64,000 bases of DNA, taken from Alphaproteobacteria bacterium (GTDB taxonomy: Bacteria > Pseudomonadota > Alphaproteobacteria > UBA7985). A program made the position numbers and the translations under genes. How positions within the stretch are numbered: position 1 is the first letter of the stretch; every line of letters starts with the position of its first letter. A model generated the notes under the pieces. It saw nothing but the letters and a program-made list of their open reading frames with translations, ran no database searches and was not told the DNA's origin. Shown here piece by piece: positions 25,511 to 27,398 of the stretch. Location: NCBI GenBank assembly GCA_965658725.1, contig CBFHUI010000002.1, positions 7,890-71,889 of the forward strand, written 5' to 3'.

Positions 25511-26210
25511 CTTTGAAACTGCCCGGTCCTTTGGCGGTCTTGGCCGCGTAGTCGGCAGCGCCGCTCATCAGGTGCAGGGCGGCGACGGCGGCGTCGAAGG
25601 GGTCTTCTGCAACCGCGAGGAAAGCCGCGCAGACCCCGCCCGCAACGCATCCGGTTCCCGTCACAGTCGCCATGAGCGCGTCTCCCCCGGTCAGGCGAAC
25701 AACCCTGTCGGCGGAGACGACGTAATCAGTCGCGCCGGTCATGGTGACAACGGTTTTGAACTTATCGGCGAGCAGGCGTGCCACCCCGGCGGCTTCTTCG
25801 GGCGAAGCAAGGCTGTCCACGCCTTCAACCACCCCAGCCTGACCGCCCAGCGCAAGGATCTCACCCGCGTTGCCGCGAATGATGGCGGGGCGGAGCGCAA
25901 GCAGGGTCTCGGCGATCTCGGTCCGCAGCGCACTGCCTCCAGCGCCAACCGGGTCAAAGACCCAGCGCTTCGCCGCTTTTGCAGCGGTGGCGTAGGGCTC
26001 GGTCCCCTCTGGCACTCCGATGTTAATCAGCACGGCATCGGCGGCACCCGCGATGGCGCCCACTTCTGCCTGTCCGCGCGCCATGATTGGCCGGGCGGCC
26101 ATGGCATTGAGTGCATCGGCAACGAACCCCATGGTCACAGGGTTGGTCACGCAGTGGACCAGCGGGCGGCGCGCCTGAAGCAGCGGCAAGAGGGTTCCGA
26201 CGCTCGACAT
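25470..26210 (-). CDS. thiM: hydroxyethylthiazole kinase
   Basis: ThiM signatures (PLVHCVTNPV, GTGC). ATG overlaps the TGA of the upstream binding-protein gene (TGATG). Confidence 0.85.
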   Translation of the reverse strand: MSSVGTLLPLLQARRPLVHCVTNPVTMGFVADALNAMAARPIMARGQAEVGAIAGAADAVLINIGVPEGTEPYATAAKAAKRWVFDPVGAGGSALRTEIAETLLALRPAIIRGNAGEILALGGQAGVVEGVDSLASPEEAAGVARLLADKFKTVVTMTGATDYVVSADRVVRLTGGDALMATVTGTGCVAGGVCAAFLAVAEDPFDAAVAALHLMSGAADYAAKTAKGPGSFKVAFLDALYSATTA

Positions 26211-27286
26211 CAGCTTTGCACGTTGGTCCAAGCCGAGAGCGCAGCCACAGCCTCGGCATAGGAAGCGGCGACCTTGCGGGTCATGGCGTTTGTGTCGGCG
26301 AAGTCAGCGAGCACGCCTTTTGCGGCGGTCTGTGCGGCGGTGACGATTTCAGTGGGCAGGCGCTGGACGCTGGAGCCTTCGCTCTGCAGGGCCCGAAGCG
26401 CCTGTGCGTTGAACCACGTAGCCTCGGCCAAACCCGCATCATTCTCGGCGTCGCAGGCGTTTTGGACCGCCGCGCGCAGATCGCTGTCCATGCCGTTCCA
26501 AAGCGCTGCATTAACCAGCGCTTCAGCGGTGCCGTTGGGCTTGTTGAAGCCGGGGAAGTAATAGTGATCTGCGACTTGGTTGAATCCGAGCCCCCGGTCA
26601 GAGAAAGGCCCGAGAAATTCCACAGCATCAATCGCCCCGGACTGTAGCGCGCCAAAGATCTCGGAAGGCGGTAGGGTTACGGTTGCTGCGCCCAGTTGGC
26701 GGTAGATCTCACCGCCCAAACCAGCGGTGCGGATGCGCACGCCCTGCAGGTCGTGGAGGCTGTTCAGCGGCGTTTTGAACCAACCGGCCATATTGGCACC
26801 GGAGTTCCCCGCGAGCAGGGGCTTTATGTCCAGCGGCGCATAGGCTTCGTCCCATAGCGCCTGCCCCCCGCCAAAGCGCACCCATGCGTTATGCGCGTCG
26901 GGACCAAGGCCAAAGGGAATGGTGGTGAAGTACGCCGCTGCAGCAACCCGGCCGGCCCAGAAAAACGACGCTGTGTGCGCCATTTCTGCGGTGCCGTCGG
27001 CTACGGCATCGAGCACGCCAAAGGGTGAGGTTAGCTCTCCGGCACCGAGGACTTGCACCTCGACCTTGCCGCCGGTGGCTTCAGTGATGCGGGCGCCCAG
27101 ACGGTCAGCGGTGGTGCCCGGTCCCGCGCTGCCCTTGGCCCAAGAGGTAACCATCCGCCAGCGCTGCCGACCTTGGGCTATGGCAGGAGTGGTCAGCGTA
27201 AGGGGTACAGCCGCTGCAGCTGCTGCTGCCGCGGACAGGCCCAGCAAGCTGCCGGATTTGAGCAGGTCTCGGCGCGATGACTTCAT
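26210..27286 (-). CDS. TRAP-type (DctP-like) periplasmic solute-binding protein with Tat signal, first gene of the thi salvage operon
   Basis: Start [12 protein letters not shown]. DctP-family-like segments ([22 protein letters not shown]; [16 protein letters not shown]). RBS GGAGGGA. The 728-aa ORF in the track is an upstream read-through artefact. Confidence 0.6.
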
Positions 27287-27295
27287 GGGTTCAGG

Positions 27296-27398
27296 TCTCC
27301 CTCCGCTGGCATGATCCAGATCCGGTTCGATGGGTATGTTCTCAGCCGCGCAACCCGATGCACGGCACCCCAGACAGCCCTTCCCATGACAGTCTCGC
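27296..27398 (-). promoter_or_regulatory. TPP (THI-box) riboswitch
   Basis: Minus strand reads ctggggtgcc...gctgaga...accc...gaaccggatctggatcatgccagcggagggag, matching the THI-element consensus (CUGAGA, ACCUGAUCUGGAUAAUGCCAGCGUAGGGAA). The SD sequence sits immediately 3' of it, before the ATG at 27286. Confidence 0.85.

Follow-up and report, generated by a model that had tools for sequence, protein, structure and literature searches.

What is a receptor of the tripartite ATP-independent periplasmic (TRAP) transporter type doing in a thiamine operon, and what does it bind? The question is raised by a 64-kb stretch of DNA from an uncultured marine alphaproteobacterium (64,000 nucleotides of contig CBFHUI010000002.1, hereafter the window), in which the gene for a DctP-family solute-binding protein (SBP) stands between a thiamine pyrophosphate (TPP) riboswitch and the genes thiM and thiE. 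Our follow-up of an earlier sequence-only reading of this locus indicates that the SBP very probably belongs to the thiamine regulon. As to its function, the operon would serve a TPP-repressed thiazole salvage in which the SBP captures a thiazole precursor, most probably 5-(2-hydroxyethyl)-4-methylthiazole-2-carboxylate (cHET), an account that we consider fairly probable. The riboswitch and the genes behind it are arranged as follows.

27281-27382, minus strand: TPP riboswitch aptamer (THI element), an RF00059 match whose 3' end reaches the ribosome-binding region and start codon
27297-27304, minus strand: Shine-Dalgarno (SD) sequence GGAGGGAG, within the aptamer 3' strands P4/P1, located from the sequence and the Rfam alignment
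26210-27286, minus strand: DctP-family (TakP-like) SBP of 358 amino acids with a twin-arginine translocation (Tat) signal, PF03480 E = 9.4e-41
27173-27286, minus strand: codons of the twin-arginine signal peptide (... PAIA/QG), cleavage site approximate
25470-26210, minus strand: thiM, hydroxyethylthiazole kinase, PF02110 E = 3.9e-63, NF006830 252.6 bits
24818-25498, minus strand: thiE, thiamine-phosphate synthase, PF02581 E = 8.7e-48, TIGR00693 173.5 bits
24023-24676, minus strand: MlaC-family periplasmic protein with the Tat-like signal TRRQALIL, PF05494 E = 3.8e-14

When the window was searched with cmscan, the TPP riboswitch family RF00059 matched over the full model (positions 1-105) with 56.8 bits (E = 1.7e-08), the criterion being a score at or above the gathering score of 54.3 bits. 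On the minus strand the CUGAGA core lies at 27345-27340 and the ATG of the SBP at 27286-27284, and 10 nt separate the last SD base from the A of this ATG. The core CUGAGA ... GAACCGGAUCUGGAUCAUGCCAGCGGAGGGAGACC is constant, at the same position, in 11 leaders of orthologous or related loci, and P3 differs among them in both length and sequence. The RNAalifold consensus of these leaders recovers P2, P3, P4 and P5, with pairs changed on both sides at three P3 positions. The helices P2-P5, the CUGAGA and ACCUGAUCUGGAUAAUGCCAGCG-type cores and the covariation are those of a TPP riboswitch. The minimum free energy (MFE) of the leader is not below that of shuffled sequence (z = -0.05), and stability is therefore no evidence for the element; the case for the riboswitch is made by the covariance score and by conservation.

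The SD bases correspond to paired P4'/P1' positions in the Rfam alignment, and GCGGAGGGAGACC is unchanged across the leaders of the window's clade. In the MFE fold the SD bases as well as the AUG are paired, and an extended P1 pairs CAUGGG with CCCAUG over the start codon. The interval between the aptamer and the ATG is too short for a terminator, and the two terminator-like sites found in a scan correspond to chance expectation. The anatomy suggests control at the level of translation. The E. coli thiM riboswitch regulates a thiM-containing salvage operon at translation initiation. It belongs to the same aptamer class, and neither element contains an extra hairpin between CUGAGA and ACCC. In E. 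coli, however, a separate anti-SD helix sequesters the SD, whereas in the window the SD lies within the aptamer's own P4'/P1' strands. Unlike in the E. coli operon, the product of the first cistron in the window is a secreted binding protein; thiM and thiE would have to come under control via translational coupling. Upstream of the aptamer, TTGACA at 27411-27406 (minus strand) is the sole promoter-like feature, and a sigma-70 promoter scan gave no full match. A class I/II aminotransferase gene (27566-28768, plus strand) is divergent from the riboswitch leader; the same neighbour is found in loci L001-L003.

The SBP scores 140.4 bits against PF03480, for which the curated cutoff is 23.4, and a Pfam-type profile search found no match to the NMT1 or TAXI models. 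A twin-arginine motif, SRRDLLK, is present near its N terminus; the two arginines are residues 5-6 and are invariant in homolog alignments. Residues 1-29 have a low predicted local distance difference test (pLDDT) score, and in the translation an AxA motif precedes residue ~38. The true start of the gene is the ATG at 27286, which agrees with a homolog of 358 amino acids (P0001) and with the position of the Tat motif. An open reading frame (ORF) of 728 amino acids at 26210-28396 (minus strand) was discarded as an artefact, the SBP frame being open through the riboswitch into the antisense of the neighbouring gene. ThiM and ThiE both pass the equivalog-level hidden Markov model cutoffs of NCBIfam, which are 180 bits for NF006830 and 145.1 bits for TIGR00693. 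The TGA of the SBP (26212-26210) shares one base with the ATG of thiM (26210-26208) in the sequence TGATG. The overlap of thiM and thiE is ~29 nt if thiE begins at the ATG at 25498, the likeliest start, a TTG at 25510 being possible; this overlap recurs in orthologous loci. The sequence-only reading had placed a THI-box directly upstream of the binding-protein gene, assigned the protein to the DctP family, named thiM and thiE and noted both overlaps, all of which is confirmed. It had also called the binding protein fused to thiM-thiE, and this has to be corrected, since the genes are separate ORFs that are probably translationally coupled, not fused.

Is the association of this SBP with thiamine genes particular to the window? 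A reference scan with one genome per species yielded 561 relatives, and the best 80 of these (46-82% identity) were fetched; the linkage counts given here refer to them. At least one of thiM, thiD and thiE is clustered with the SBP gene in 79 of the 80 loci. In same-strand clusters thiM is the most constant partner (72/80), followed by thiD (55/80) and thiE (27/80). The sole locus without a thi gene is L022, in which the SBP gene lies between recN and ligA. A THI-box, as recognized by a strict regular expression, is found at the head of 66 of the 74 untruncated clusters. The same expression gave 68 matches on the SBP strand and none on the opposite strand or in reversed controls (945 kb). In two other operon types the Rfam TPP scores are 76.8 and 65.8 bits. 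The loci show at least five gene orders, including the following.

THI-thiM-thiD-SBP, 36 loci: Roseibium/Labrenzia, Pannonibacter, Pseudovibrio and others
THI-thiM-SBP, 8 loci: Sneathiella, a two-gene operon
THI-SBP-thiM-thiE(-MlaC): the window's clade
THI-thiM-thiE-thiD-SBP: with or without thiZXY

The SBP homologs form a tight group (73-98% identity) and a broad group (46-60%). Look-ups of the context at several homolog distances show thi genes throughout, with gene orders and flanking genes that differ. Co-localization with thi genes and THI-boxes is a property of diverged genomes, and paralogs that lack the sequence signature described below are unlinked. The carriers are mainly Stappiaceae, Sneathiella, Rhodovibrionaceae and similar groups, and the genomes nearest to the window are metagenome-assembled genomes (MAGs) of unclassified Alphaproteobacteria or 'Geminicoccus sp.'. 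The co-occurrence of orthologs with THI-boxes and thi genes, for which the earlier reading had proposed a test, is thus observed; the window itself is not demonstrably from Rhodobacterales, the lineage in which it was to be sought.

Several further features of these loci were seen. Several lineages without a recognizable THI-box retain an SBP-thiM(-thiE-MlaC) or thiM-thiD-SBP cluster. In L041, an Alphaproteobacteria MAG and one of the 79 linked loci, an IS110-type transposase gene (7303-8247, plus strand) is situated between the SBP gene and thiM, and this insertion probably uncouples thiM-thiE from the riboswitch. In 43 loci with thiM-thiD-SBP operons (L008, L010 and L023-L090) a gene for an EamA-family membrane protein occurs ~1.5-4 kb upstream of the THI-box, and gene calls in L008 and L010 include an AsnC-type regulator among the genes between it and the operon. 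The recurrence of the EamA-family gene is probably lineage synteny of Stappiaceae and relatives. The Sneathiella-type loci (L027, L029, L031, L054, L058, L060, L067, L081) carry a divergent gene for a protein with 9-10 predicted transmembrane segments just upstream of the THI-box.

To which receptors is the SBP related? The nearest relatives in the Protein Data Bank are 7ug8, 4yic and 2hzk (E = 1e-55 to 5e-62), and the closest solved structures (7UG8, 4YIC/4YZZ, 5CM6, TakP 2HZK/2HZL and 4PET) are cation-dependent receptors of alpha-keto acids or lactate. The AlphaFold2 model of the SBP (pLDDT 88.8) has template modelling scores of 0.84-0.86 to 4yzz, 7ug8 and 2hzl, and it shows the long C-terminal (swapped) helix fold of the TakP type in helices 312-330 and 334-357. 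TakP from Rhodobacter sphaeroides and the keto-acid receptor 7UG8 from Synechococcus CC9311 share with the SBP the DctP subfamily, the fold (root mean square deviation ~1.5 Å) and a Tat signal, but the identity in the structural alignment is 30-34%. TakP-type receptors are encoded in DctPQM operons, whereas the window clade is encoded in TPP-riboswitch thiamine operons. The roles of the residues in the ligand and cation site of TakP are known (PMC1839085). They were mapped on the SBP with a nine-residue offset and are given here with their frequencies among 120 homologs.

TakP R177 (carboxylate salt bridge): R186 in the window protein, 120/120 homologs
TakP E214 / W215 (cation ligands): E223 / F224, conserved
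TakP Y99 / Y100 (Y100 hydrogen bonds to the carboxylate): F108 / F109, mostly F/F
TakP Q156 (cation ligand): N165, variable
TakP E240 (cation ligand): K249, with K in 78 homologs and E in 41

Both the profile score above the cutoff and the carboxylate arginine R186 identify the SBP as a DctP protein. The full cation and ligand site of TakP (Tyr100, Gln156, Glu214, the carbonyl of Trp215 and Glu240) is not present, and E214 and the backbone position are all that is retained. The TakP sequence WWEGGP is replaced by F-N/H-K/E-P-N-G, and N251, G252 and E255 are newly invariant. Among 150 representatives drawn from the wider family (682 at E < 1e-30), the signature FFW together with F-x-[K/E]-P-N-G-x-x-E is confined to the top ~9; the remaining representatives read [FW]HEPG... 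with YYW. Three of the five nearest non-signature relatives are found in canonical DctP-DctQ-DctM operons and two elsewhere, and none is linked to thi genes. By sequence, then, the thiamine-operon SBPs are a small discrete clade inside the TakP/alpha-keto-acid family of TRAP receptors. Two co-varying pocket variants are seen at residues 248-249 (26545-26540, minus strand): F-N-K-P-N-G goes mostly with an SBP gene at the head of the operon, the window included, and F-H-E-P-N-G mostly with an SBP gene behind thiM or thiD. The lysine at the position of the cation-binding glutamate of TakP points to a change from binding through a cation to direct binding.

What would such a pocket hold? The conservation of R186 and E223 favours an anionic ligand with a chelating atom next to its carboxylate, which fits a thiazole-2-carboxylate. 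The 4YIC structure probably contains picolinate, an N-heteroaryl-2-carboxylate resembling cHET, and is a possible lead. A thiazole is preferred to a pyrimidine because thiM is the most constant partner, because two-gene thiM-SBP operons exist and because ThiXYZ, the pyrimidine ABC system, is co-encoded in some loci, where the SBP would plausibly serve the remaining thiazole half. Within the thiazoles, cHET is favoured over the alcohol 5-(2-hydroxyethyl)-4-methylthiazole (HET), since the carboxylate arginine is invariant and is joined by a second basic residue, K249, in the window clade, and since the 2-carboxylate beside the ring nitrogen would mimic the alpha-keto-acid chelate of the parent family. 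In addition, cHET is used at trace levels in a ThiM-dependent manner. The requirement for ThiM was shown in Ostreococcus, and both Ostreococcus and E. coli use cHET at (sub)picomolar levels, implying uptake with high affinity (PMC5899164). Of the earlier proposal that the binding protein captures a thiamine precursor, the general part is supported by the linkage to thi genes and THI-boxes; as to the compound, cHET would be likelier than the thiazole alcohol named there.

The neutral alcohol HET could still be the ligand. ThiM is annotated as a HET kinase, and the pocket of the SBP is more hydrophobic and aromatic than that of TakP (FFW, F247), so that it could stack a neutral thiazole; moreover, the tyrosine that hydrogen-bonds the carboxylate in TakP, Tyr100, is lost. 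Against a neutral ligand stand the arginine at position 186 in all 120 homologs and the basic K249 of the window clade. The ligands named for the closest solved relatives are all organic acids (alpha-ketovalerate, alpha-keto acids, lactate). E. coli needs far higher HET than cHET, and picoeukaryotes do not use HET (PMC5899164). We regard HET as an improbable ligand.

Slightly less probable again is that the SBP binds the pyrimidine half of thiamine, either hydroxymethylpyrimidine (HMP) or one of the degradation products aminomethylpyrimidine (AmMP) and formylaminomethylpyrimidine (FAMP). The kinase of HMP and HMP phosphate, encoded by thiD, is clustered with the SBP in the 55 loci counted above; L064 has the arrangement thiE-thiD-SBP-thiZXY without thiM, and L096 carries tenA, which encodes a pyrimidine-salvage enzyme. 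On the other hand, the window operon and its whole clade possess thiM and thiE without thiD, the Sneathiella operon consists of thiM and the SBP only, and thiM is present in 72 of the 80 loci. In seven complete operons the genes for ThiXYZ stand beside that of the SBP, which would make a pyrimidine-binding SBP redundant. HMP, AmMP and FAMP have no carboxylate, yet R186 is invariant.

There is little to recommend an ordinary alpha-keto-acid (pyruvate-type) receptor like TakP, or a role outside transport, with a thi linkage unrelated to the ligand. The closest structures do bind alpha-keto acids or lactate together with a cation, and no permease is adjacent. But neutral synteny cannot explain a linkage seen in 79 of 80 loci, across many genera and no fewer than five gene orders; three TakP residues are replaced (Y100F, the variable Q156 and E240K/E) and a clade-specific P-N-G...E motif has appeared; the relatives found in DctPQM operons are the non-signature ones; and uptake of a keto acid under TPP starvation has no obvious logic. 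Binding of intact thiamine or thiamine phosphate, which would make the SBP an analogue of ThiB under a TPP riboswitch as in thiBPQ, is just as implausible, because the partners are precursor-salvage enzymes (thiM, thiE, thiD, tenA), no thiamine kinase or pyrophosphokinase occurs in the examined clusters, and thiamine, a cation, would fit poorly into a pocket that contains R186 and K249.

With cHET as the favoured ligand, the operon can be pictured in the following way, in which we infer the identity of the ligand, the role in transport, the permease partner and control by translation. When TPP is abundant, it would bind to the leader aptamer. The closed P1 and P4 would then hold the SD, and the extended P1 could pair with the AUG, so that translation of the first cistron would be blocked. 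As the TGATG and the 29-nt overlap would couple the translation of thiM and thiE to that of the SBP, the whole unit would be silenced. When TPP is scarce, the TakP-like SBP would be exported through the Tat pathway, where it would bind an exogenous thiazole precursor, most probably cHET, held by the invariant TRAP arginine R186 and the remodelled aromatic pocket. A DctQM membrane unit whose genes lie elsewhere would take over the ligand from it. ThiM would phosphorylate the imported thiazole, and ThiE would join it to HMP pyrophosphate to give thiamine phosphate.

Several observations weigh against this picture. The RF00059 score of the window exceeds the threshold by just 2.5 bits, and the leader of a close ortholog, L011, scores below it. 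In L004/L021, L006/L019, L020, L053 and L085 the SBP cluster has no recognizable THI-box or upstream Rfam match. The number of loci with thiD, as well as the full operon of L064 that lacks thiM, leave room for a pyrimidine ligand. The carboxylate-binding tyrosine of TakP is a phenylalanine and one cation ligand is a lysine in the window clade, and the binding mode of the SBP must therefore differ from the TakP template. The assignment of the ligand is drawn from gene context and pocket residues. In a tblastn search, DctQ and DctM from three systems found no counterpart in the window or in L001-L090 with the exception of L073, so that uptake hinges on a partner permease encoded elsewhere. A DctM family that is found beside the operon in L073 and L096 has a different DctP upstream of DctQ elsewhere (6/6 loci checked) and is linked to thi genes in none of 80 metagenomic loci; owing to their shared synteny, L073 and L096 count as one event.

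Where, then, is the permease? Neither clustering of ORFs by hydrophobicity, nor Pfam searches of the membrane ORFs, nor tblastn revealed a DctQ or DctM in the 64-kb window, the membrane ORFs being TrkH, a Na/Ca exchanger, cytochrome b and PlsY by Pfam. The components of a tripartite TRAP transporter are thus incomplete at this locus, and the SBP is an orphan receptor without a local permease; the idea of a complete TRAP transporter encoded here had to be abandoned. In L073 (3897-5838, minus strand) and L096 (7427-9320, plus strand), which are related MAGs, a DctQ-DctM pair without its own DctP is arranged back-to-back with an operon of the type THI-box-SBP-thiM-thiE-thiD(-tenA), tenA being present in L096. 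This pair is suggestive of a permease recruited in a single event and is a lead for the partner. Its DctM family was rejected as the general partner of thi-type SBPs, being unlinked to thi genes in the metagenomic set and having a different DctP of its own. Three further candidates were dismissed: what lies in the 1.3 kb separating the SBP gene from thiM in L041 is the IS110-type transposase and not a DctM, the ORF of 710 amino acids after the SBP in L022 is an NAD-dependent DNA ligase and not a fused QM protein, and the ORF of 165 amino acids upstream of the L073 DctM is an arginine-rich wrong frame, the real DctQ being at 5221-5838. Orphan SBPs of the tripartite tricarboxylate transporter (TTT) type, such as the Bug proteins and AdpC, are likewise periplasmic, without an adjacent membrane unit, and are presumed to share one encoded elsewhere (PMC5812351). 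The TTT orphans belong to a different transporter family, and in the window clade the orphan state is fixed across a whole coherent clade.

How does the SBP compare with known uptake systems for thiamine and its precursors? ThiY of ThiXYZ and ThiB of ThiBPQ are likewise periplasmic receptors encoded in TPP-riboswitch operons, and ThiXYZ is co-encoded with an SBP of the window type in several loci. ThiY, however, is an NMT1/THI5-like receptor for HMP and FAMP, to which the SBP family is unrelated, there being no NMT1 match. ThiXYZ and ThiBPQ, unlike the SBP operon, have the genes for a permease and an ATPase alongside, as ABC systems driven by ATP, and their ligands are a pyrimidine or intact thiamine, whereas that of the SBP would be a thiazole. 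ThiW and ThiU are integral membrane proteins found mainly in Firmicutes and archaea, ThiW being the S-component of an energy-coupling factor transporter. They too were predicted from genome context and THI regulation to import thiazole for ThiM, but they are not periplasmic TRAP receptors as the SBP is. Their prediction as thiazole (HET) transporters comes from Rodionov et al. (cited in PMC5322297), and searches reported in PMC5322297 found no homologs of them in marine plankton that exchange thiazoles. Annotated HET transporters are limited to ThiU and ThiW; the marine vitamin B1 papers examined, up to 2026, treat ThiBPQ, ThiT, ThiXYZ, ThiV, CytX, YkoF, ThiPerm and Omr1 and name no thiazole or cHET transporter. 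A search of the full-text literature, subscription journals aside, for a link of TRAP or DctP with thiamine, thiazole, riboswitches or cHET gave nothing relevant, and a review of TRAP and TTT systems mentions neither thiamine nor riboswitches (PMC5812351). In the databases the relatives of the SBP carry generic names, being annotated as 'mannitol/chloroaromatic compound' or generic TRAP binding proteins, and NCBIfam offers only the generic TRAP_S1 model. A TRAP-type receptor in a thiamine role is thus as unusual as it had first appeared.

Behind thiE, the MlaC-like gene begins 141 nt downstream. In 14 loci, which have three distinct sets of flanking genes, it is found behind thiE; it is missing from other operon types, and a search for its homologs yielded just the same clade. 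It is a conserved fourth gene of the window operon type, but its membership of the salvage system is uncertain, the protein being of a lipid-carrier type. The remainder of the 64-kb window is housekeeping, with signal recognition particle (SRP) RNA, uvrB, uvrC, argF, trkH, cytochrome b and others. The bacterial small SRP RNA (RF00169, 60.8 bits) lies at 2204-2298 on the plus strand.

Vitamin B1 and its precursors both limit marine microbial communities and shape their structure, and cHET is a thiazole 'currency' that is exchanged among marine plankton. In recent field studies the gene of a cytoplasmic kinase, thiM, has been the only marker of thiazole or cHET use (PMC12998435, PMC10881298), and no bacterial component of cHET uptake is named in the literature searched. 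Judged from its sequence and context, the SBP clade is a strong candidate for a bacterial receptor of thiazole precursors, probably the carboxythiazole. More tentatively, it may be the missing high-affinity receptor for cHET and the first TRAP component of B1 salvage, permanently orphan and docking on a distant DctQM, in which the cation of the ancestral keto-acid site has been replaced by a lysine in the window lineage. If so, the MlaC-like fourth gene could encode a further periplasmic carrier of that pathway. A discrete, readily recognized clade with ties to thiM and TPP riboswitches across hundreds of genomes would then provide both a candidate receptor and a marker gene for metagenomes, and cultured test organisms are at hand in Roseibium, Pannonibacter, Pseudovibrio and Sneathiella. 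The range of TRAP substrates would come to include a vitamin precursor, and the clade would be a clean case of binding proteins whose genes always lie apart from those of the permease.

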